The notes below the pieces were generated by a model. It was given only the letters and a program-made list of their open reading frames with translations. It ran no database searches and was not told the DNA's origin. The position numbers and the translations under genes are program-made. A DNA stretch of 32,000 nt from Candidatus Saccharimonadota bacterium (GTDB taxonomy: Bacteria > Patescibacteriota > Gracilibacteria > BD1-5 > UBA2023): NCBI GenBank assembly GCA_046350815.1, contig JAXLZO010000001.1, positions 930,001 to 962,000 on the forward strand, written 5' to 3'. This document shows positions 1 to 27,150 of this stretch, in pieces. Each line of letters begins with the position of its first letter. Within the stretch, counting starts at the first letter, position 1.

Positions 1-808
1 TACCAGGGATACGATCCGTGAGGATGTGATTACTCCACTTGATCTCTTGTTCGACTGCTTGTGCCATCATTTCTCGGATCACTGCCTCGCTATATATCTC
101 AGGAAATTCACGTCTGATCTCACGAATAATATTCGCAAAAAGAGTTACATGGGTAAGTTCATCACGACGAATATAGGCAATCATACGACCAGTTGCCGCC
201 ATACGACCATTGTCTGCGAGGGTATCAAAGAATGCAAATCCATTGTAGAAATAGAGTGATTCGAGGAGAAAATTCGCGATCATAGCACGGAAAAAATTCG
301 CATCCGTAGGATCATCTCGAAAATCCTCATAAATCGATCCAATATACTGGTTGCGCTCGAGGAGAATCTTATCATCTCGCCAGAAATTATAGATCTCTTC
401 TCGCTCAGCACTCTCGACCACACTCTCGAGAATGGTTGCATAGCTTTGTGAATGTATTGCCTCTTGGTAGGCTTGTATCGAGAGAAGGAGCTTCACCTCA
501 GGTGCTGTGATATAGTCAGCAAAATTCGGAAGATTTACCGTCTGAATCGAATCGAGAAAGATGAGGAATGATATAATCCCCTTGTATGCACGTTGTTCTT
601 CTTTGCTGAGTGTTGGAAATTGTGACTTGTCTGCATTGAGTCCAGAGACCTTCTCAGGAAGCCAAAAATTCCCCACCATCACCTGATAGAGTGATTTTGC
701 CCAAGCATATCGAGTATTATTGAGATTAAAAAGTCATGTTGTATTACCATGAATGATACTCAGATGAACGTCGTCACCTTGAGGATTAAAGAGCTTATTC
801 TTTTGCAT
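1..808 (-). CDS. nrdB: Ribonucleotide reductase class Ia small (beta) subunit. The C-terminal part runs off the window start.
   Basis: Minus-strand translation from ATG (808-806) gives MQKNKLFNPQGDDVHLSIIHGNTT[TGA=G]LFNLNNTRYAWAKSLYQVMVGNFWLPEKV... It contains the di-iron ligand motifs EAIHSQSY and RRDELTH and the FYNGFAFF block typical of NrdB. The frame stays open to base 1. Confidence 0.9.
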
Positions 809-2331: not shown

Positions 2332-4890
2332 CTATCCACTACAACTCACACATCCCTCGACCTCTGCTGAGAGTGATCGTACGTAGTAGACAGTCTTCAC
2401 TCCCTGTCTCCACGCCTTAAAATAGTAACTGTAGAGTTCTGCTGGGGATACACGAGCTGGGTCGATCATCCATTCGAATGAGATAGATTGATCGATCCAC
2501 TTGTAGATCACGGAGATCATATCAATCACATCGTTCATATCCATATTTGTATATTCCTTGTAGAGCCAGAAATTCTCAGCAGAGAGCTTCGGTGCTACAC
2601 GGATCGATGTCGTAAGATTGGTCTCGACGAAGTACTTCTTATAAATGGGTAAAAGTGCTGCTGTCGTACCAACAAGCCCCGCCGTTGACGTATTCGGTGC
2701 TGGACCAAAGAGATAACCAAATCGGATACCATTCTTCTCGAGAGCATCGAACACTTCGCTCCATTCAGCACTGTAGGATGAGTTCGTCATATAGTGAGCA
2801 CGATCATGAGAGAGAATTTTGCCCTTCGAATATTCAGATCATTCATAGAGCGGATATGCTCACCTCTCCCCTGCTATCGCAATACTTGACTTAAACACTT
2901 CAAGTGCAAATACTTCAAAGAGATCATCCGCATGAAGACGTGCCTTCTCACTGTCATAGGCATATCCATTCGTCGCAAGGTATTCAGCAAAGCCAAGATA
3001 TCCAAGTGCTACTGGACGGTATCGGTGAGCTGTGCGCTCTGCCTCCTTGATCGGATAGAGATTGAGTGAGATAACATTATCGAGTGCTCGCATCACGAGT
3101 GGGATGACTCGCGCAATTGTCTCTCGATCATGTACCTTGGCAATATTGATGGACGCAAGATTACACGTGACGAGATCACCTGGTTGATACTTAATCGAGA
3201 GTTCGTCTCATTCAAGGGTCTCATCGATGAATTTTGATGGAGATGAATTCTGACAGATCTCAGTACAGAGTTGTGTTGAATAGATATTCCCTGCATGACG
3301 ATTTGCATTGTGCTTGTTGACTGTATCACGGTAGAACACATATGGCATACCAGTCTCAACTGCGGTCTTGAGGAATTTTTTGAAGAGATCTTTGGCGCTG
3401 ATTTCTTTCTTGAGAGTGATACGATCATCCTTCTCGAGCTTCTCATAGAACGCATCAAATTCTGCTCCAAAGTGATCCTCGAGAGAGATACCATAAATCA
3501 TCTTGACCTCATGCGGATCAAAGAGGGTCCATGACTCATTTGCTTCAACACGACGCATAAAAATATCCGGAACCGAAATAGCAGGAAAGACATCAAATGC
3601 CTTCGATCGGATATCTCCCGTCTCAGTCTGGAGATCGAGAAAGTCATAGATATCAAGATGCCAAACATCGAGTGTCACGGATATTGCTCCAAGGCGAGCA
3701 CCAAGCTGGTTCACCGCAATACCTGTATCATTGATCACCTTCGTCCATGGTGTAACACCACCAGACGCACCTACAACACCACGTATGTGTGAACCCTTTG
3801 ATCGGATATGTCCAAGATAGCTTCCAATACCACCACCGAACTTCGATATCTGCGCCATATTCTCGATACCATGATAGATACCACGAAGATCATCATCAAT
3901 ATTTATCTTAAAACAACTCGAGAGCTGCGCAAAGTTGGTACGAGCATTGAGGAGTGTCGGAGTTGGGAGTGATATTTCACCTGTAGCACATGCGCGATAG
4001 AGTGCCTTGGCAAAGCTAAGACGATCCTCTGGCTTCTCAGCGAGAGCAAGAAAGAGTGCGACTGAGAGATACATCTCTTGAGGGAGTTCTTTCTTCTTGA
4101 TAAGATAGCGTTTTGTTAGGCTATGAATCGTGGTATATCGATATCCGAGATCGATGGATTTATCAAGTACGCTTGCCGCGTCCATCAGATCTTCATCTGT
4201 ATATTCAGCAAAACGTGTGTTGTATTTGCCAGACTTAGTCAGCGATCGAACAAGATCTCGATATCCTTCTGGAGAGTACTTACGTCCGAGTTCCTTGTAG
4301 AGATCAAAGAGCTTGATACGAGCAGCAATATGCTCCCAATCAATATTCTCGATGGTAACAAGATCAATACACGTCTTAATAAGAAGTCTTGAGATATCCT
4401 TGGTGGAAATATCAGCGACAATATTCTTCTTAAACGCTTGCTTGAGATCCTCAAAACTACAAGTTTTCTCATATCACTGAGATGCTCGATCAAAGAGCTT
4501 GTGGATTTTCTCAATTTCGAAGAGTTCTTTGCTTCCGTCTTTCTTGGTTACAAAAAGATTTGATTTCTCGAATTTCTTTTGGAGTTTTTCACGATATTCT
4601 TCCCGTTCTTCAGCCCGCTTAGACCGATAAACGATGTATTCTTTTGCGACTTCATAACATCCTTGCTGCATGAGAGCTTGTTCTACCATATCCTGAATCT
4701 TCTCAATTCCTATTTTGGAATCATCATGTCCACAGATCAAATAAATCTCACGAGTGACAATATCAGTAACATTTTCAACATCACATTGGTGACCATTAAT
4801 AGCTGTTACAGCGAGCTCTATAGCTCGAGTGATTCGGCTTGGATCGAACTCTTCGACGGATCCGTTTCGTTTGATTACCTGAATTTGCAT
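2332..4890 (-). CDS. nrdA: Ribonucleotide reductase class Ia large (alpha) subunit with an N-terminal ATP-cone, 852 aa
   Basis: Four ORF-track fragments (4474-4908, 3208-4185, 2860-3096, 2332-2790) share one frame and are joined only by TGA. The N-terminus MQIQVIKRNGSVEEFDPSRITRAIELAV is an ATP-cone. Internal motifs include CNLASINI and GGGIGSYLGHIRSKGS. The C-terminal tail is CVSCSG (CxxC). The stop is TAG. Confidence 0.93.
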
Positions 4891-4902: not shown

Positions 4903-4918
4903 ACACAAGATATAGTGG
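4903..4918 (-). promoter_or_regulatory. NrdR box, proximal (ACACAAGATATAGTGG)
   Basis: Matches the published 16-bp NrdR palindrome consensus acaCwAtATaTwGtgt at 14 of 16 positions. It lies 13 bp upstream of the nrdA ATG. Confidence 0.6.
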
Positions 4919-4934
4919 TGGAGATTTTATAAAA

Positions 4935-4950
4935 ACACTATATATAGTAA
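4935..4950 (-). promoter_or_regulatory. NrdR box, distal (ACACTATATATAGTAA)
   Basis: Matches the NrdR consensus at 14 of 16 positions. It is offset 32 bp (about 3 helical turns) from the proximal box, which is the classical tandem arrangement. On the minus strand it overlaps a plausible -35/-10 pair (TTTACT ... TAAAAT). Confidence 0.6.
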
Positions 4951-5003
4951 ATATTGACTTTTAAAAAAAATGAAGATTTTGCTTCTAGAAGCCAAAACAA
5001 GGC

Positions 5004-5034
5004 AAAAAAATACGATTGACAGTTGGCAATCGTA
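5004..5034 (-). terminator. Rho-independent terminator after the 5047-6180 gene
   Basis: The minus-strand RNA reads TACGATTG-CCAACTGT-CAATCGTA followed by TTTTTTT. It starts 13 nt after the TAA at 5047-5049. Confidence 0.6.
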
Positions 5035-5046
5035 TGGGTTATGAAC

Positions 5047-6180
5047 TTATTTAATAGGATTTATGGGTGAAAGAATGATTTTTTGAATCGAATTATCCTC
5101 ATTGAGAAATGAGAGGATTTCTCCAGAAATATTCGTTAAAGGTCATGCCGCGATTTCTTTTACACGCTTCTCATATGGCTGATAGAGATACGATGCATGC
5201 AGAGTTGAGAGAATATAAGCATGCTCATAGACAAATACCTTCATAGGAGCATCGAATCTATCATTGAGCACTACTCTACGAAAGAGCTCATCATAGAATA
5301 CGAGAGATCCATCAGCCTTAAGTACAAAGAGATCACCTCCGATACTCTGAATATATTTGATATTCTTATCCTCTTGATTCAGCGTAAGCTCTCGGTTTTT
5401 CCCCAGTGGAAGTATCGTACCCGATGAAGTAAGGAGATAGCTTCCACCAATATAGTTAAAGATATGTCGGATGGATCCAGAGTAACCAGTGGGTAGCGCA
5501 AAAATATCATTTCAGAAATATTCTCTTGGGATCGTCACAAATCATGATAGAGTATATCCCACCTCATTTGCAAGCATAGGAGTAATCACTGTGTTTGTTC
5601 AAGCAATCTTAATCGATCAAGAAAGCGTGCTGCTTCCGTATTTGTATTGTTGCACCTGCTTGCAATTTCGCTTATCTTGCAAATACACCGTGCCAATTCA
5701 AAGACAGAGAGACTCTTCTTTCTTCTCTCATGTATTTTCTGATATTTTATAAATTCTTGGATCACTTAGAAGACTAAAATTTCGTCGAATAAACTGATGT
5801 TCATTTTGTACCTCAAAATCAAAATCAATAGAATCAGCACTTCATCACTCTATATGTATATGATGTAGTCCATAGGAGATTTTTTCTTGGATGATTTTTT
5901 TGTTCAGATCACCATGATCCAGAGATATACTGATAGCATCTGATTGTGTATCAATAAGTACAAATCAGAAACGCTCCAAGAACTCTGAGCTCTTTGGAGC
6001 AAGTATTGATCCAGAAAGATATCATTTTTGAGGAAGCAAACGAACAACATCAAAATTGATAGTCCAACCGTTACAGTATGCAAACATCCAAAGAGCAAAA
6101 ATCCACGTGATTATCCAAAAAGTTGCATGGATAGCATGATAGGGTGAACGTTCCTTTCGGAGTATGTGTCAAATATTCAT
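5047..6180 (-). CDS. Hypothetical protein with an N-terminal membrane anchor, 377 aa
   Basis: ATG at 6180-6178 and TAA at 5049-5047, 378 codons in one frame with about a dozen in-frame TGA codons. The N-terminus has a hydrophobic segment (ATFWIITWIFALWMFAY). The gene starts 15 nt after the GT2 stop, so it is probably co-transcribed. No family was recognised. Confidence 0.55.
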
Positions 6181-6195
6181 AGGTTGCTCTAAAAA

Positions 6196-7674
6196 TTAGA
6201 CTCGATCAAGTTTTTTTGTCACATCAAAGGAATCAAGTCTTCGTCCAAAGAAAAGCCGCATCTGACTTTCAATAGCAGGTATAGAGAAGAGCGTGAGGAT
6301 GAGAAGTGGAACAAAAAGCCATTGGATCGTATTCACAAAATAATCCCATGGACCAAATTTTTCATATTTTCTCATCATCGTCAGAGAAAAAACAGTCGGT
6401 ATAGCAACAGAAATTGTCAGAAACGTAAATATTCCAGATACAACCAATGGAACGGTAAAGATGAGGAGTGATGCTTGATGTATCTCAAAAAAAGTAGGGA
6501 TACTGCTCATATAAAAGAGCACTACGGGACCCGCCGACCAAAAAAGATGATTAAATAGTAGATAAAAAAACTTTCTGAACTTCTCACGAAATGGAATTTT
6601 TGGTCTCTTTATAAACTCAGGAACAACATATTCAATATCACTGCAACCCCACGACCAACGTCGCAGTTGTTTGTACTGTGCGTAGAGCGTCTTATGAAGA
6701 CTTGTATCTTCAACAAGATCCATATGACATACAGCGAGCGTAGGTATAACTCGAAATTGTCCATCCCAAGCAAAATATGACCTCCAATATTGCAGTCCGT
6801 CTTCTACTATGGAATAGAGATCCCAATAATCTGATTTTTGAAGACAATGAAGCGACATTCCATAAACAGCAAAATTACGAAAAAACTCAGGATTCTGAGA
6901 TTCATTCATTTGCCAAAAGGTTGTATTCATAGCAACAATACGAGCAAAAAAATGACCACGAAGCCAATTATTTGAATAAATAGGTGTGTATTGAAAAATG
7001 GCTTGATCGCGCGCTTCAGTATTCAAAAACGTATGTGTAACAACGGAAAGAAAATTCTTTTCGACGACAGTATCAGCATCGATTGTTGATACAAATGTAT
7101 TCATAGGGTCGAGATGTTTCATCTGCTCTATTTGCTTCATAGCATAAGTGATGTTTGCAGACTTCACCTTTCATTCATTTTTCCGACCATCTGGATGAAT
7201 AATTTTTACAAGATGAAATGACACAACACTCTCCAATCGATGCATGAGTTCATGAGCAATTTGCACCGCTTGTGATGATCTTCCTTCAGCACAAAGAACG
7301 ACTGTCAGATTTTCCTTATGTGGGTAATCATTATTTTCAAATGCTTTTACTGCCATCTCTACAACAGAATACGGTTCATTGTAGAATGGTATGAGAACAA
7401 TATGCATGAGATCTTTTGCATCATTTCGGACAATGTTTGTCTGAGCATATGGAAAAAGAAGAGATCTCTTGATCGTAAAAAAAGATCTTGTAAGAAAAAA
7501 ATAGGACTTAAAAACCTTTACTCACCAAAACGCTATAAAAAATGATATGAATGCAAGTCCAAGTTGTGGGTGTATTTTGTAACAAACGATCGGTAGCAGG
7601 AGAAGTCAAAAGAACGCAATACCCGGAATTTTTGAGAGAACCGATTGTTTTGTATACCAATGTCAAGAACGCAT
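6196..7674 (-). CDS. Membrane-bound processive family-2 glycosyltransferase (cellulose/chitin-synthase-like), 492 aa
   Basis: Fragments 7171-7407 and 6196-7167 are in one frame. Extending upstream through three TGA codons reaches ATG 7674 and adds N-terminal TM helices. Motifs are IPFYNE, G[TGA]KVKSAN, TIDADT (the DxD class) and QYKQLRRWSWG (QxxRW). C-terminal TM helices are present. Confidence 0.8.
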
Positions 7675-7709
7675 ACAAATGAAAAAATATAGGCATCACT
7701 GCCTATGGA

Positions 7710-8756
7710 TTAGTAGTTAAGAGTAGCAATAATCGTATCAATAATTTTTTTTGATTGAGCGGTCTGAGTTACATCTTCAAGAACAAAAGTAGAGTCTCAT
7801 TTACCAATATAATAACGTGAATCAATTTTAACAGCTGTCTGTCATTGAAGTTCGCTCAAAAGTTTTCATCGATAAAAATCAACAACCACATCACTATCGG
7901 CACGGCTAGTAGGTTCGGAAGATGATTTTAATGTTATTTCATGGGTTACTCATTTTGGAGCTATAAATCAGTGAAAAAAAGTTGCCACAGGGAAACTATA
8001 AGAATAATTGTATTCCTTCTTAGTATACGTTGCTATTTTTAATTTTGGATCAAGAAGATAAGAATTCATATCGAGTACTACAACATTTGCTGCGGCAATA
8101 TTCGTATTATTTATGGGCTCTATTTTTGCTGAAGTGGATCAAGTCATTCATTGAGGGGGAATGATTATTCAAGTAGAAGCAGAAATGGAAGATATATCAT
8201 TATCATCACTCAAGCCTGCGGAATTTCCTGTTGAGGAGAGCATGCTATTATCGAGCGATGATGTAGATCATGTAGACTCGGTGGATCCAGTATCTCATTG
8301 TGAGCCAGTAAGCACGGACAAGGTGATATCATTGGTTGGCGTAAGACATTCTCCATCGTGTGCAATAATAACCTTTGAATTTTCTGCTAGACAAGCATTC
8401 TTGTATGTTAATCCATTCACACCACACACTAATCTTTCTCACGCATCACACAATACATTATCATTAGACATTTTCTCCCCTCTCGCATCTTTGTCATTTC
8501 AAGAATAGTTACTTACTTGTGAGAGGAAAATACTCAATCCAACAATCAGTGCAAGTGCAGATAGAAAAGCAATAATGAGAGGAATTTTTGAATTTTTTTC
8601 CTCAGGCGTCAGCTCGTCCTCAAGAGCTTGATATGTTTCAACAGCGCTAAGATGCTTCTTGGAGAGTGGTTTCACCAAAGAAGTTTCTTCTCAAATCTCT
8701 AAATTTTTGTTTGCTTTTCCAGTATTTGCCTTGGTCTTTTTGGGGTTTGTTTCCAT
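7710..8756 (-). CDS. Single-pass membrane protein with an extracytoplasmic Kazal-like domain, a Ser/Thr/Gly-rich linker and an unknown C-terminal domain, 348 aa
   Basis: ATG at 8756-8754 and TAA at 7712-7710, 349 codons. The TM segment is IPLIIAFLSALALIVGLSIFL. The Kazal core is C-DA[G]ERLV-C-GVNGLTYKNA-C-LAENSKVIIAHDGE-C, with canonical C2-x7-C3 and C3-x10-C4 spacings and the VCG..G.TY.N.C signature. The gene is invisible in the standard-code track because it contains about 10 TGA codons. Confidence 0.7.
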
Positions 8757-12321: not shown

Positions 12322-12507
12322 AAAAGAAAAGATGATAGACAAAATGAGGATATGAAAACTTCATGGAAAGACAAGATTTTCTTTATAAGATCTTTATTGC
12401 GAAATAATTTTCAAATCACACAAGCAGAAAAGAGTTGGATCTTTGTACAAAACAAGAAAGATACTCTAGAATGACAGAGAATATTTTTATCATCTTTTTT
12501 TATCCCT

Positions 12508-15500
12508 ATGAAAAAAATTCTTTCGTCCGTATTGCTCATTACTATGAGTCTGGGTAATTTCTCTTGAGTATATGCTCTATGAGCATTGGATGTTGCCACT
12601 CCCCTTATTGGTGAAATGGCTAAATCTATGGAGGATTTCATCAAATATCCATCATGATCAGAATTTGAGAAAATCAAATCAATCGTCGATACCTATCTCG
12701 TAAGAGAACCAAATCAATATGGAGATACATGGTGGAAAACCAAGCCAAACTACACACCGATCATTGAGAAAGAGCTTAAATTTCTCATCCTCTCAACCTA
12801 TCAATGACACGAAGATTTTTATAAAACCCTCTTCCCTTACTATTCAGGTTGGAACAATGAATCATCAAAAGAGAAACAAATAAAAGATCTTTTGAACGCC
12901 ATACCTCGCTCAAAACACATGAATATATCCTCCATTTTTAATAATGGATCCTCCATTGGTGAGAGCTTTATCGATGCGAGTTTTGGGGTAGATTTTTCTG
13001 AGCAAAATGATAGTTTTGATACAATAGTCGCAATTAAAAATAAAATTAATACCATCTCAGAGAATAAATGCATAAACTATAGTAGCTATTCTGATAGTTG
13101 TTCATGAGATCTATGAAGTTTTCTTCCATCAATAGAAGAATTACTTCAAGAATCTATTTACAAAAATAATCAGGAAATTTTATTATGAGACATCAAAGAT
13201 GAATTTATTTATAAATTAAGTAATGATGAGCAAAAAAGAGTAATTAATAGAGATTATGTAAACTGAGTATCTTCACAATTAAAGAATAAGAATAAACAAG
13301 AGCATGAAATATATGAAATTCTATTTTGAAATAAAAATAGCGATTTTGATCTAGATAAAATTATTTCATGAGATAAAAAAGAAGCACTTCGACTACTGGG
13401 AAGAATTAGTAATTATAATGATTTATGATACGATGATAAATCAATGCTCAAAAATTATATAAAATATCTTCTATCGTCTCAATTATACCCAGAAGGCACG
13501 ACCTACACCCTCGAATATAAGACAAAATCCTACACCTATGAGTCTGCACTTAAAGAGGTAGAATCAAAAGAGAATAAAGCTGAAAAGAAAGACTACAAGA
13601 AACTTATGAATGGTGCAAAAGCTGAAAATATTCCGGAGATTTTTCAGAAAATCCCGAATGATTCTGTATCACTCTATATTAAAAATCCTAAAAATCTCCT
13701 CTCCATTCTCGATCAACCATCGAGTGGGCTTCAGCTTAGCGGAATTGATAGCTCCAAGAAAATCAAGGAATATATGTCAAAATGGCTTGAGATTGATGAT
13801 TTTTCTCAAATTCAAAAGAATCTCAAACATGAATCAGCTATTATTCTCACCAATCTTGATCCAACCACCCCAGAGGTAACATTTATCATATCTGAAAAAG
13901 ATCGTGATGCTCTCTCGTGAGATGGAAAGAGTGCCATCGTCAAACAACAAGACGGATATATCTATGTATCGAGCTCTCAAGCCATACTTGATAGTATTAC
14001 CAACCTCAAGAGCTCGGATTCTCTCGCTGAATCGGATGATTTTCACTATGTTTGGTGGAAGAAATCAGCAAAGATCCAAGATGCTTTTGTATTCGTGGGA
14101 GATAGATTCTTTGAGAAGATAACCACACTCGATACTTTTATCAAACATTATCGCAAAATCCAAGATCATAAGCAGCTCACCTCGCTTCAAGAGCTCACTT
14201 GGGCATACAAAAAAGCATACAACCGTGATGCCAAGAGTTTCGATGAAATTATTGAACTTTTCTCGAAGACATGAGAGAGCTCTCTCACATCGGAGTCATT
14301 AAAAAATTACTCCATCCAAAATGGTCTCGTCATACACAAGAACATAGGAAGTCTTGCGAATACAAAAACAATAAGCGATGCAAATTACGATTTGAATCAA
14401 ATTACTCGAAAAGAACTTGATGATTATAAATATTCCATACTCAAATATCGTGATATCTGGCGAGCGAGCCTTGATCCAATGGGAATTATCATCAATCAAT
14501 ACAAAGATGGAATCAATATCGACTTCTTCATGACGCCAATACCAGATTTTCCTGATGAGGAAACCAATCTTATCTTTAAGAATTTTCAATGAGTTCTCAA
14601 AGATCGACTTGATTTCATCCAAGATACCAATGTTCGATCAGGTATGGCGAGTATAGTATTTGGATTCGATACACAAAAAATCAAAGAAAAACTCGATAAA
14701 CCTGAAGGAGAGATAGAAAAAATGGCGTCAATGGGATATAAAGAAGGACAAAAAGAGCTCTTTGGAAAAGAAATCGATATTCTCTCGATGCTTGGCGGTG
14801 AATTTGCCCTTGGAATCGGTTCGGTCGATGATGATATTCTTGATTTTGATGCAGAAAAAGCAGATACCTTCTTTGCTATCCAAGTGCAGAGTCAAGAAAA
14901 GGGAGAAGAACTCATCAAGATTACACAAGAGCAAATACAGAAATTTGCCGAGATGGAAGGCGGTAGTGAAGGTAGAATGGTATCACAAATAATCAAGATG
15001 TTCTCAAAACCATCCATAGAGGAATATCGTGGGTCAAAAATCTCCTACGTTGACGACATAGGGCTTCCATTCATAGGTGTGACAGGGATTTCATACGGAT
15101 ATGCAAAAGGATTCGTATATTTTGCCTGAAATCGTAATACTATCAAAAAAGCGATTGATACTGCTCTCGATGGTGATACACAAAAGGCAACCATTGTTGC
15201 CAATACTCAAACATCTACAGGAGTACTCTTTGGAGCTATCGTAAACGGAGCAAAGGTGAATGAGAATATCAATGCCATCGTGAAGAAAAATAGTGGACTT
15301 CTCTATATGATGGGGTGATTGGCAGGGCAAACTTCATGAGCACGGGATGCGATCTGGGCATTGAGCGCATGATATTATCAATCATATGAGAGAAATATGC
15401 TCCTCGGACGAAAAGATATTCCATTCCAAGAAAAAATTGGTATTGCACAACTCACTGGAAAAGATGGGCATATTTTCCTCAAGATATCTCCTCAAGATGC

Positions 15501-16197
15501 ACATTTCTCATCAGGAACTATTGCAACCCAATGGAATGATTTCGCACCCAAGATAGATGCTTCTTATACAACTCAAGATGGTATTAATCTCTTGGAGTTC
15601 CTCAAAAAAGATGATACCTTTGTGAGTGAACTTGCCGTGTTTACACTTGCTTCCGTATTTGATAATACAGAGCAAACAAATATTTTCTTTCACAATACAC
15701 TTTTTACGCTCAATCTTGGTAAGGACGAAATTGGATTTGAGCTGAGAATATTTGACGGTGAACAACAACAAAAAAATCTCTTCTCAAAATTACTTGGCGG
15801 AGATACGAGTAGTGTGATGATTATCGTATGAATGGTCGTATTAGCACTCCTTGGTGGAGGTGGATGATTTGTTATGATGCGCCGTAGAAGAAAAATGAAC
15901 GGAAGCATTACCATATCTTCATCTACTCTAGCATCCCCAACAACAGAAACGACCCAATTCTCTCCTCAACCAATAACCGAAGTAATGACAGAAAGCATTC
16001 CAACGTATATTCAGCCGACCACCACCACAGTTATAGCGAACAATATTTCAACTCCATCTACTCATCAGGATATACTCATTCCAGTCGATCTACTATCAAC
16101 AACACCGATAGTGCTCGAAAATACTCCGATCATGCCTACGAAACCACAAAGTGTCATCACTCCACAACAACCATCAGATAATATGATTCGTCCATAG
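12508..16197 (+). CDS. Very large secreted, C-terminally membrane-anchored surface protein of unknown family, 1229 aa
   Basis: All + strand ORF-track fragments from 12892 to 16197 share one frame and are separated only by TGA (roughly twenty). ATG 12508 gives a signal peptide, MKKILSSVLLITMSLGNFS[G]VYA. Near the C-terminus the hydrophobic VMIIV[G]MVVLALLGGGG[G]FVMM is followed by RRRRK and a Thr/Pro-rich tail. The stop is TAG. Confidence 0.8.
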
Positions 16198-16208
16198 ATT
16201 TCTATCTT

Positions 16209-16874
16209 ATGCTATCCATCGAACTGAAAAATATATCGCTCATCTTTCGAGAAGAGGTCATTCTCAAAGATATATCGCTGAGTATTGCACCACATACGAT
16301 CACAAGCCTCTTTGGATCGTCCGGAAGTGGTAAGACAAGTCTCTTGCGAATTGCGAGCACACTTCTCTCCCCTACTCATGGAGAGGTCGTTTGTCAGGAT
16401 GAATATATTCATGAAAAGACTCGAAAAGATATTCTCTCCATGCGATCAAAACTCTTTGGATATTTTTTTCCTGAGCCAATATTTCTCGAAGAACTAACCG
16501 TTCGTGAGAATATTCTCATATCATTCATCCTCTCAAAACAAGCAGTCCCTCAGAAATACTACGATTGATTGCTCAAAAAATTTGAGATCACTCATTTGGA
16601 AGGATTGGTTGTGTCACGCCTCTCGAGTGGTCAGCGTGAGCGAGTGAATTTTATCCGAGCCATCATCCACTCACCCCAGATACTGATACTCGATGAGCCA
16701 TGAGCCAACTTAGATGATCGTATGAAAAAAATACTCTTCGATCATATCAGTACACTCAAAAATCGTATGACAATCCTCATAGCTACACACGACAGTGAAC
16801 TGAAAAAATATTCGGATTTCTCTTATCAACTCTATGATTCTACGCTTCATCCTCTTGAAGATTCGCGCACATAA
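16209..16874 (+). CDS. ABC transporter ATP-binding protein (FtsE/MacB/LolD-like), 221 aa
   Basis: Walker A is GSSGSGKTS, the signature motif is LSSGQRE and Walker B is ILILDEP[TGA=G]ANLD. The gene starts 12 nt after the giant gene. The stop is TAA. Confidence 0.9.
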
Positions 16875-18057
16875 AATACGAAGTAGTATTGTTATTCTTT
16901 CAACTCTCTTGATGAGCATTTTTTTGAGTGCACTCCTTTTTTTATACAGTAATATTGTTGCATTTAATAGTTACTATCAACTCGATGGAGTTGATCCAAG
17001 ACGTATAAGCATCACATCTGATACATCATTCTTTGAACTCTTTGGCAAGGAAAAAAGTGGGCTCTCAGAAGAAATAGAGATGAAAATAAAAAATGACCCT
17101 CTCGTTGATCATTCGTATTTTCTCACATTTGTAGAGATACCTGTACTTGCCCAAATGGATATTTTTTCTTTTCATCTTGCAACCGATATCCCTGTATTTG
17201 GTATTTCGGATGAGTTTTTTTCAGGAATATCTACAAAGAAAAATTCAAGAGAAAATATTCCGATTGGTATATCAAAATCGATGCTTGAATTTTATAATCT
17301 CCAAGTAGCAGGGAGTGCTTCATTTTTTCCTCGAATGAATGAATATTTTCTCAAGTGACAAATAATGACTCTCGAGTTTGGAAAATCAAAGCTCTTTGAT
17401 TACGCAGAAAAATCACCCATTCTTCGCTCGTGATCAGTTGTTACAATCAATCAAGATTTACCAGGATTTGGTCTCAGTATTCCTCTCTCGGTAGTGCAGG
17501 GTTCTCTCCAAAAGCTTGGATACAAAACCCCAAGGCCTTATCGCGCGATCATCTATCTAAAGAATATCGAAGATATCGAGAAAATAAAATCATCATACCA
17601 ATGATATACCTTTGTCTCTGATCGAGATAAAATCGCTCAAGCAGAAAAAAATATACAATTTCTACGATCTATTTTTCTCACCATTGCGGCAGTTTCATCA
17701 TCACTTCTCATTCTTTTTCTCTGATTTATCTTTGCTGGTATTCTCAGAGAGAATTCTCGAATGTTTACACTCTTTCATATGATCGGAGTGCACCGATCAT
17801 ATATTTGGTCCACCATCTATCTCGAGCTTGGGAGTCTTGCAATAGTAGGTAGCATACTGGGAAGTATAGTATCAATCATTGGTTCTATATCTTTCACAAC
17901 ATTTATTACACAATACATAGCATCAATTGGACTATGATTTAGCCCAATTTCTCTTACATGATTGCAAATAGGTTGATTATTTTTTATTCAAAGTACTATT
18001 CTTTTTCTTTTGATTACCCTCCTTGGCTACCAAAAAGTGATATACGAAAAAAATTAA
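16834..18057 (+). CDS. FtsX/MacB-type ABC permease with a large extracytoplasmic loop, 407 aa
   Basis: The N-terminus MILRFILLKIRAHKIRSSIVILSTLLMSIFL is typical of the FtsX family. A loop of about 230 aa follows, then three C-terminal TM helices. The gene overlaps the ATPase gene by 41 nt. The frame is joined through 7 TGA codons. The stop is TAA. Confidence 0.85.
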
Positions 18058-26100: not shown

Positions 26101-26130
26101 TAATCGATTTAGAGTTCTATGTTTAAAAAA

Positions 26131-27150
26131 ATGTGCCTTATCTTACTAGCTATCACAGTTTTTGTAGTCATTCTTATTCCAGATAGGAATACTATTCCAC
26201 GAGATGCACAATTTATTGGTGGTTGATATTACAAAAATGGGAATGATGTATATTTTGAAACGGGTTGAGGTTTTTTTCTTCAACTTCATGATCCGTATGA
26301 AGCATACAGAATTGATGAGGCTGATGGCAAAACATTTAGCTATCTTGGTAATAGTTTTGCAAAGGATAAAAACCATGTATATTTTACATGAAGAATTATT
26401 AAATGAGCTAATCCTGATAAGTTTAAATTTGCATCTGGATCATTTTCACAGTATGTTATAGATGATAAAAATGTTTGGTATGGAGATGAAGCTATACCAC
26501 TCGTAGATATTGAAACATTTAGCTATCTTGGTAATAGTTTTGCAAAGGATAAAAACCATGTATATTTTACATGAAGAATTATTAAATGAGCTAATCCTGA
26601 TAAGTTTAAATTTGCATCTGGATCATTTTCACAGTATGTTATAGATGATAAAAATGTTTGGTATGGAGATGAATTATTACAAGATCGAGACCCATGAACT
26701 TTTGGATTAATATATGATATTTTTCCGCATGAATATACAAAAGACAAAGAGAATGTATGGTATAATAGAGAAATAATAGTATGAGCGGATCCTAAAACAT
26801 TTGAACTACTGAGACCAACAGACGGGCTTACCACTTATTCTAAAGACAAAAATTACGTATACCTCAACTGAAAAAAAATCGATATAGATACTAAAACGGT
26901 TAAGGTTGTAGAATGACAAACTGGTACGATTAGATTTCTCAGAGACCAATATGGTGTCTATTGCTTTGAATCAAAAAGAGAATGACATGATAAATTACAA
27001 TTAAATTGAATTAATCTTAACACATTTGAACTTTTGAATAGTGAATACTTAAGAGATGATAAGCATGTATATTTTGCTAATTGTACTTATCAATGATTTT
27101 ACTTTAAAATAGTAAAATGAGCGGATCCTAAAACGTTTAAAATTAAGTAA
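26131..27150 (+). CDS. DKNYY-family repeat protein with an N-terminal membrane anchor or signal, 339 aa
   Basis: The N-terminus is MCLILLAITVFVVILIP. The repeat motifs recur: KDKNHVYFT[G]RIIK[G]ANPDKF, DDKNVWYG, KDKENVWYNREIIV[G]ADPKTF, KDKNYVYLN and DDKHVYFA...VK[G]ADPKTF. The frame is joined through about 15 TGA codons. The stop is TAA. Confidence 0.8.
26330..26673 (+). repeat. Intragenic tandem duplication: two 100% identical 161-bp copies (26330-26490 and 26513-26673) with a 183-bp period
   Basis: Direct comparison of the two stretches. The offset is 183 bp, or 61 codons, so the duplication is in frame and duplicates one DKNYY repeat unit. Confidence 0.9.

Follow-up and report, generated by a model that had tools for sequence, protein, structure and literature searches.

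A predicted membrane-anchored, four-cysteine Kazal-type protein beside a glycosyltransferase and its partner in a Gracilibacteria-type bacterium with UGA as a glycine codon

Introduction

Does a Candidate Phyla Radiation (CPR) bacterium display a genuine Kazal-type domain on its surface, and does the protein carrying this domain belong with the glycosyltransferase gene next to it? This question is raised by three adjacent minus-strand genes, here referred to as genes A, B, and C, in a 32,000-nt stretch of contig JAXLZO010000001.1 (positions 930,001 to 962,000; the window), which is an ordinary chromosomal stretch of a Gracilibacteria-type CPR bacterium using code 25 (UGA = Gly). A first-pass annotation made from the sequence alone described these genes as one operon for a membrane-anchored Kazal-like protein (A), a processive glycosyltransferase of family 2 (GT2; B), and an anchored protein (C). 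Here, we present a computational analysis of this locus. Our findings support that gene A encodes a non-classical, four-cysteine Kazal-type domain and that gene B together with a gene C-type partner forms a conserved module next to which gene A is a lineage-restricted neighbor.

Results

Gene A carries a four-cysteine, non-classical Kazal-type domain

Open reading frames (ORFs) were called on the whole window with only TAA and TAG as stops and TGA translated as Gly, as in code 25; under code 11, ORFs of at least 100 aa cover just 38% of the window. The three minus-strand genes obtained in this way are gene A (7710-8756; 348 aa, 13 in-frame TGA codons), gene B (6196-7674; 492 aa, four in-frame TGA codons), and gene C (5047-6180; 377 aa, 12 in-frame TGA codons), with gaps of 35 nt between A and B and 15 nt between B and C, and their coordinates are the same as those in the first-pass annotation.

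The entire gene A protein contains exactly four cysteines (residues 103, 111, 122, and 137), which lie in the region C-DAGERLV-C-GVNGLTYKNA-C-LAENSKVIIAHDGE-C and are spaced C-x7-C-x10-C-x14-C (aa 103-137; 8346..8450, minus strand). The Kazal core spacing that had been claimed, C103-x7-C111-GVNGLTYKNA-C122-x14-C137, fits this region and is invariant in six orthologs. Likewise, the claimed Kazal assignment, including the loss of Cys1 and Cys5, was borne out by Pfam, by profile matches in the PDB, and by the count of four cysteines. Using the family profile of gene A, a search of the PDB gave 11 matches at E<0.01, all 11 of which are Kazal proteins; the best single-domain match is GmSPI-2, the silk proteinase inhibitor 2 from Galleria (E 3e-6 over 38 residues, no gaps). 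In the hidden Markov model check against Pfam that had been proposed, the isolated 71-aa region scored above the gathering cut-offs of Kazal_2 (PF07648; 24.1 vs 22.8 bits) and Kazal_1 (PF00050; 21.7 vs 21 bits), and all six members of the gene A family match both models. Two results weigh against the assignment: full-length gene A falls just below both cut-offs (Kazal_2, 20.1 vs 22.8 bits; Kazal_1, 17.2 vs 21 bits), and an AlphaFold2 model of the Kazal region built from the six-sequence alignment had a mean predicted local distance difference test (pLDDT) score of 38, which makes it unusable. For the Kazal fold, a beta-hairpin, an alpha-helix, and a beta-strand with an exposed canonical loop, the support is the alignment without gaps to Kazal proteins of solved structure. 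Altogether, the profile matches and the cysteine pattern support that gene A carries a genuine Kazal-type domain of the non-classical, GmSPI-2-like form.

The Kazal-type domain, family I1 in MEROPS, has in its classical form disulfides between Cys1 and Cys5, Cys2 and Cys4, and Cys3 and Cys6. Because Cys1 and Cys5 are absent from gene A, the classical six-cysteine, three-disulfide subtype, and only this subtype, is excluded. Based on the analogy with GmSPI-2, we predict that the disulfides of the gene A domain are C103-C122 and C111-C137 and that the P1 residue, at Cys+2 as in GmSPI-2, is Ala105. The predicted reactive-site loop from P2 to P3' would then comprise D104, A105 (P1), G106, E107, and R108 (8433..8447, minus strand), of which G106 (P1') is encoded by TGA.

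The Kazal-type domain is flanked by a membrane anchor and an orphan domain

From the N-terminus, gene A consists of a Lys-rich segment, a single transmembrane (TM) helix, the Kazal-type domain, a Ser/Thr/Gly-rich linker, and an orphan C-terminal domain. The TM helix (aa ~58-79; 8520..8585, minus strand) has its best Kyte-Doolittle 19-mer at aa 60-78 (2.84) and is kept in all orthologs; the Kazal-type domain follows ~25 residues beyond it. From this arrangement, we infer a type II (N-in) membrane-anchored topology. The linker (aa 138-215; 8112..8345, minus strand) is a Ser/Thr/Gly/Asp-rich low-complexity segment that is poorly conserved and variable, while the C-terminal 125-130 residues are the best-conserved part of the protein.

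The C-terminal domain (aa ~219-348; 7713..8102, minus strand) has no significant relative in Pfam or the PDB, and neither full-length gene A nor full-length gene C had a significant match in PHROGs. In a HMMER scan of 1.84 billion representative proteins, relatives of the C-terminal domain were limited to one protein, P0007, and one 45-aa fragment. P0007 (604-616 aa; contig L005, 5014-6864) contains PD40/Tricorn-like repeats and ends in a ~125-aa C-terminal domain of the gene A type; its gene is not adjacent to any GT2 gene.

The gene A family is narrowly distributed and varies in its predicted loop

Among 5.8 billion clustered proteins, only six full-length relatives of gene A were found (61-95% identity); a word-index protein search gave seven proteins for gene A and six for gene C. 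The family forms one 50%-identity cluster among the 1.84 billion representatives scanned with HMMER, and no relative emerged when the gene A alignment was used to scan the GTDB species genomes. A DNA-pattern scan of metagenomes added a near-identical strain (L091) and two further contigs of the gene A family (L095 and L097).

The first-pass annotation had set beforehand that the Kazal claim would fail if the cysteine pattern were not conserved in homologs; all four cysteines are invariant in all six orthologs. G(V/I)NGLTYKNAC and HDGEC are also invariant across the orthologs, while the loop is variable and follows the pattern C-[DS]-[ADE]-[GSN]-x-x-L-V-C, and the P1 residue, Ala105 in the window protein, is Asp or Glu in the orthologs. 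At the codon level, 4/5 loop codons differ nonsynonymously and none synonymously between the window and each of the orthologs L001 and L002, and L001 and L002 differ from each other by three nonsynonymous changes and one synonymous change. By comparison, the scaffold codons have 3-7 nonsynonymous vs 7-13 synonymous changes in the pairwise comparisons of these three sequences. A fixed scaffold with a variable loop is a signature typical of canonical inhibitors, and we suggest that gene A bears this signature, based on small numbers of changes.

Gene B is a predicted membrane-integrated, processive-type GT2

The description of gene B as a processive GT2 with TM helices on both sides agrees with its motifs, its Pfam matches, and its structural model. 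Gene B has the motifs DAD (residues 199-201), VED (290-292), and QLRRW (336-340); across 90 homologs, no variation occurs at D199, D201, E291, D292, or Q333, while conservation of R339 and W340 is 90% or higher. Its Pfam matches are Glyco_tranf_2_3 (1.5e-8) and Glyco_trans_2_3 (8e-7). In the structural model (pLDDT 85.5; predicted template modeling score 0.88), two N-terminal and three long C-terminal TM helices flank a GT-A domain. The top Foldseek match of this model is the Chlorella virus hyaluronan synthase (HAS) over the full length (E 4.6e-10; TM-score 0.55), followed by Xenopus HAS1, BcsA, and chitin synthases (Chs1). Because the model is confident and matches HAS, BcsA, and chitin synthases, we conclude that gene B is predicted to be a membrane-integrated, processive-type GT2 synthase of the HAS/BcsA/chitin synthase type. 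More than 200 homologs with 45-55% identity are found across Gracilibacteria, whose labels they carry, and homologs with ~30% identity in other CPR groups.

We also observed two features in which gene B can be compared to BcsA. At residues 128-130 (window 7285-7293), gene B and all homologs have AEG/TE, with E130 invariant, whereas the first UDP-binding site of the BcsA type is DDG; this replacement may represent a family-specific change in nucleotide-sugar binding. The C-terminus of gene B (aa ~478-492; window 6196-6240) ends in SFDVTKK, and F483, T486, and K488 are nearly invariant in the 90 homologs. This end appears to resemble the FxVTxK gating-loop motif of the cellulose synthase BcsA.

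Genes B and C represent a two-gene module of Gracilibacteria

Gene C is N-terminally anchored and predicted to be extracellular; it had six relatives by direct search and no match in Pfam or NCBIfam. At 68 Gracilibacteria loci, the gene directly downstream of the GT2 gene encodes a protein of 410-450 aa with an N-terminal anchor like that of gene C. The profiles of the gene C family and of this partner family match each other (E about 1e-6) and nothing else, and hhalign aligned the two families with 75% probability over the anchor and the first beta-rich domain. One partner protein passes the Pfam cut-off for PEGA. These matches argue that gene C is a fast-evolving, diverged ortholog of the PEGA-type partner of the GT2.

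Clustering of the flanking ORFs at the GT2 loci gave no conserved neighbor beyond the partner. Because no other conserved neighbor emerged, we suggest that the conserved unit is gene B plus a gene C-type partner, a two-gene module that appears to be nearly universal in Gracilibacteria. We also considered whether the polymer could be deduced from other neighbors, e.g., a polysaccharide deacetylase; the same clustering shows none that is conserved beyond the GT2 and its partner.

Gene A is at most loosely associated with the B-C module

The first-pass annotation described the three genes as a single operon ending in a terminator downstream of gene C and set beforehand that its claim would fail if they were not syntenic elsewhere. 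This terminator was found (5035-5010 plus a T-run; 5000..5035, minus strand) and has a 9-bp stem that is kept, with its T-run, in L001 and L002. The A-B-C order also recurs, but it is confined to a narrow clade (L001-L004 and L095), and gene A was not found at the 68 other loci with a GT2 and partner. More broadly, at ~80 other GT2 loci, neither a Kazal domain nor a C-terminal domain of the gene A type was found, and the genes upstream of the GT2 are heterogeneous and often on the opposite strand. In L001-L004, the whole neighborhood from the gene for cysteinyl-tRNA synthetase (CysRS) to that for ribonucleotide reductase (RNR) is syntenic and, therefore, the A-B-C order in these relatives says little about a functional linkage.

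A single operon without an internal terminator does not agree with the spacer between genes A and B, in which a terminator-like hairpin with a 7-bp stem and a T-run (7681..7706, with the hairpin at 7706-7689; minus strand) splits A from B. This hairpin, which the first-pass annotation had overlooked, is comparable in strength to the terminator after gene C and is kept in L001 and L002 by compensatory substitutions, e.g., A-T to C-G and C-G to T-A. Between relatives, identity is 92-93% for gene B, 63-68% for gene A, and 68-72% for gene C; the three genes are under very different constraints. These comparisons suggest that gene A is not part of the B-C unit or at most loosely so.

UGA encodes glycine in the source genome

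In the source genome, TGA encodes glycine and not tryptophan, as supported by four lines of evidence. An in-frame TGA in the neighboring CysRS gene aligns with the Gly of a motif that is conserved in solved CysRS structures. Residue 168 of gene B, encoded by TGA, is G in 13, W in five, and N in one of its homologs, and each W stems from a TGA codon that the databases translate with code 4. The ortholog L002 has a TGA codon at the glycine of the Kazal CG. Finally, P0007 regains the SPDG motif of its PD40-like repeats only if TGA is read as Gly; the database version is SPDW. The public proteins of this lineage (P0001-P0006 and P0008-P0013) were translated with code 4, so that each TGA appears as Trp, and have no precomputed Pfam domain; thus, the Kazal domain is concealed from routine annotation.

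Other features of the window

The flanking genes are housekeeping genes and encode the RNR large subunit, CysRS, ribosomal protein L9, ABC/FtsX components, SufCBD/SufS, and LemA; Rfam and tRNA scans of the window gave no match. Just upstream of the gene for the RNR large subunit (likely ATG at 4890), two palindromes, ACWATATNTWGTG, are located at 4904-4916 and 4936-4948 (minus strand), 32 bp apart from center to center. They are the only matches in the window, where 0.02 would be expected by chance, and both are kept in L001 and L002. They resemble the NrdR-box consensus and are candidate NrdR boxes.

An ORF of 1,281 aa (12352-16197, plus strand; 21 TGA codons) starts with a hydrophobic segment in its N-terminal part and has, toward the C-terminus, a TM helix and then a tail rich in Pro and Thr. 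This ORF is without a Pfam match and is directly followed by genes for an ABC ATPase and an FtsX-like permease (16209-18057, plus strand); it may encode a large surface protein with a dedicated transporter. Finally, a DKNYY-family protein (26119-27150, plus strand; Pfam E 2.9e-66; 14 TGA codons) has four repeats and contains a near-perfect internal duplication of ~60 aa.

Discussion

With somewhat better than even confidence, we favor the explanation that the locus brings together two separate neighbors, i.e., the B-C glycan module and gene A, a lineage-restricted surface Kazal protein that is most likely a serine protease inhibitor. In this model, gene B probably builds a polymer from a nucleotide sugar and passes this glycan across the membrane by way of its own TM channel, and gene C, the N-terminally anchored extracellular partner, probably handles or organizes the polymer outside the cell. 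Gene A would be held by its N-in anchor, with the Kazal domain next, then a flexible stalk rich in Ser and Thr, and finally the orphan C-terminal domain at the surface. Most likely, the Kazal domain would act there as a canonical (standard-mechanism) inhibitor of serine proteases with the predicted P1 residue Ala105.

In addition to the full-length Pfam scores and the poor fold prediction, several points weigh against this explanation. Inhibitory function is lacking in many Kazal-like modules, such as those of agrin, follistatin, RECK, and the OATP loops; an acidic P1 residue, as in most orthologs of gene A, is unusual for broad inhibitors; and no protease gene was found in the window. For gene C, the link to the partner family consists of a profile match of ~120 columns at the stated probability of 75%, plus position. 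Moreover, with about -9 kcal/mol, the hairpin between genes A and B is weak, and the end of gene A did not reveal any promoter-like site for gene B. Because of these two observations, read-through from A to B is plausible, and genes B and C may be transcribed from the promoter of gene A.

The most probable alternative, although we consider it doubtful, is that the Kazal-type domain is real but non-inhibitory. It would then be a small, disulfide-stabilized module for binding or spacing within an adhesin or a protein for host contact, comparable to the Kazal-like modules of follistatin, agrin, RECK, and the OATPs. RECK, agrin, follistatin, and OATP1B1 are among the best PDB matches of the gene A family; the loop is atypical, with Ala, Asp, or Glu at P1 and Gly, Ser, or Asn at P1'; and the C-terminal domain rather than the loop is the best-conserved part of gene A. 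However, among single-domain matches, the closest one is GmSPI-2, whose inhibitory activity is proven and whose cysteine spacing is identical, the loop-supporting Asn of TYxNxC is invariant, and the variable loop on a fixed scaffold, small as the numbers are, is a classic signature of canonical inhibitors.

We consider it improbable that genes A, B, and C form one operon for a surface polysaccharide layer displaying a protease inhibitor, e.g., with the C-terminal domain of gene A binding the glycan, because gene A is clade-restricted and the hairpin separates it from gene B. The three genes are co-directional with short gaps (35 and 15 nt), they occur in this order on every related contig with gene A (L001-L004 and L095), the weak hairpin and the lack of a promoter-like site for gene B make read-through plausible, and the C-terminal domain of gene A is a terminal module that is reused in a second surface protein, P0007. 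However, gene A is absent beside the GT2 gene in ~70 other Gracilibacteria species in which the partner is always present, the hairpin and T-run between A and B are conserved by compensatory change, P0007 with the same C-terminal domain is not encoded beside a GT2, and the synteny in close relatives spans unrelated housekeeping genes from CysRS to RNR. Even less probable, in our view, is the more specific idea that gene A is a fast-evolving, tethered inhibitor whose C-terminal domain, shared with P0007, docks on the glycan made by the HAS-like synthase and its PEGA partner. If this were true, the bacterium would have a polysaccharide coat with an inhibitor shaped by an arms race against the proteases of hosts or prey, and the locus would provide an experimental handle on the survival of code-25 CPR episymbionts at the host surface. 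Finally, although the full-length Pfam scores just below the cut-offs and the failed AlphaFold2 prediction would fit an orphan protein that evolves fast and has its cysteine pattern by chance, we find this hardly credible, given that the isolated domain passes both cut-offs and six of six members match both models, the PDB matches are exclusively Kazal proteins, the profile recovers 1,518 multi-Kazal clusters in a representative library, and the four cysteines and the motif are invariant despite heavy synonymous change.

Returning to gene A as a surface Kazal protein beside a separate B-C module, the locus is informative in several respects. Recoded genomes conceal domains from standard pipelines, as illustrated by Trp in place of Gly in the database orthologs, and the little-studied prokaryotic Kazal set gains with gene A a TM-anchored member that has a single, four-cysteine domain. 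Should this domain prove to be an active inhibitor whose loop is hypervariable, it would indicate a protease interface between host and symbiont or between predator and prey. The B-C module, a HAS/BcsA-like GT2 with a PEGA-type partner, may be a better starting point for studying the envelope of Gracilibacteria, which are uncultivated symbionts.

Comparison with known systems

Our literature searches gave no paper in which Kazal domains are connected to Gracilibacteria or CPR and no prokaryotic Kazal protein with a tested function; one metaproteogenomics paper on Gracilibacteria makes no mention of glycosyltransferases or protease inhibitors. The statement in the first-pass annotation that Kazal domains are rare in bacteria is not borne out, as they are not especially rare in prokaryotes: the representative library gave 1,518 clusters at E<=1e-3, matched through the Kazal part of the gene A profile, and many of these have bacterial lipoprotein signal peptides (e.g., P0138, P0140, P0154, P0167, P0191, P0194, and P0198). 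One protein from a metagenome-assembled genome, MEK7118669.1, is already named [quoted passage not shown] at NCBI, and another match, P0284, has a prokaryotic context beside a gene for a type I restriction enzyme. We also considered a transfer of gene A from a eukaryote to a bacterium and found no support for it; the nearest Kazal relatives in the libraries look prokaryotic, as judged from their lipoboxes and the restriction-modification neighbor.

On the metagenome contig MDSZ01205948.1 (L099; 25% GC), a gene at 133-354 (minus strand) encodes a 73-aa predicted lipoprotein consisting of a signal peptide with a lipobox and a single four-cysteine Kazal domain. This domain is 49% identical to gene A over 35 aa and has the C-x7-C-x10-C-x14-C spacing; it is a further, independent case of a bacterial protein with one Kazal domain that is predicted to be tethered to the envelope.

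Among inhibitors with demonstrated activity, GmSPI-2 has four cysteines, two disulfides (5-24 and 13-39), and seven residues between the first two cysteines; its P1 residue lies two residues past the first cysteine, and it inhibits subtilisin and proteinase K (PMC4169406). The two domains align without gaps at ~39% identity by eye and share four cysteines in the C-x7-C-x10-C-x14-C spacing, the CGxxGxTYxNxC core, and the GEC end. They differ in that GmSPI-2 is a free, secreted insect protein of 36 residues with Thr at P1, whereas the gene A domain is a module with Ala at P1 in a 348-aa membrane-anchored bacterial protein. EPI1a of Phytophthora infestans is a two-disulfide Kazal domain that inhibits subtilisin-family proteases at the host-microbe interface (PMC1236909). 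EPI1a and gene A both have two-disulfide layouts, predicted in the case of gene A; however, EPI1a lacks Cys3 and Cys6, while the gene A domain lacks Cys1 and Cys5.

For gene B, the likeness to class I HAS, BcsA, and chitin synthases lies in the DxD, (T/V)ED, and Q(Q/R)xRW motifs and in the TM helices flanking the GT-A domain. Sequence identity to these synthases is 9-16%, gene B has no PilZ domain, and it is paired with a PEGA-type partner, whereas BcsA is paired with BcsB.

Other prokaryotic Kazal proteins, among them multi-Kazal lipoproteins and large surface proteins from metagenomes, share with gene A the domain family, often the cysteine spacing without Cys5, and tethering to the envelope. 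They are mostly tandem arrays, often with an extra cysteine in CGC, and are lipid-anchored, while gene A is TM-anchored, and in the search of the representative library, none of them has the C-terminal domain of gene A. The two-disulfide layout proposed in the first-pass annotation is predicted for gene A but is not new: it is the same in GmSPI-2, and at least one domain with the spacing C-x7-CG-x9-C-x14-C, lacking Cys5, occurs in 116 of the 155 hit-cluster proteins examined from the representative library. Therefore, a two-disulfide layout and tethering to the envelope were already known from prokaryotic Kazal proteins, and the TM anchor and the orphan C-terminal domain are specific to the gene A family. 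Altogether, genes A, B, and C are members of known families rather than a new kind of system, and our findings are in line with current knowledge rather than overturning it.

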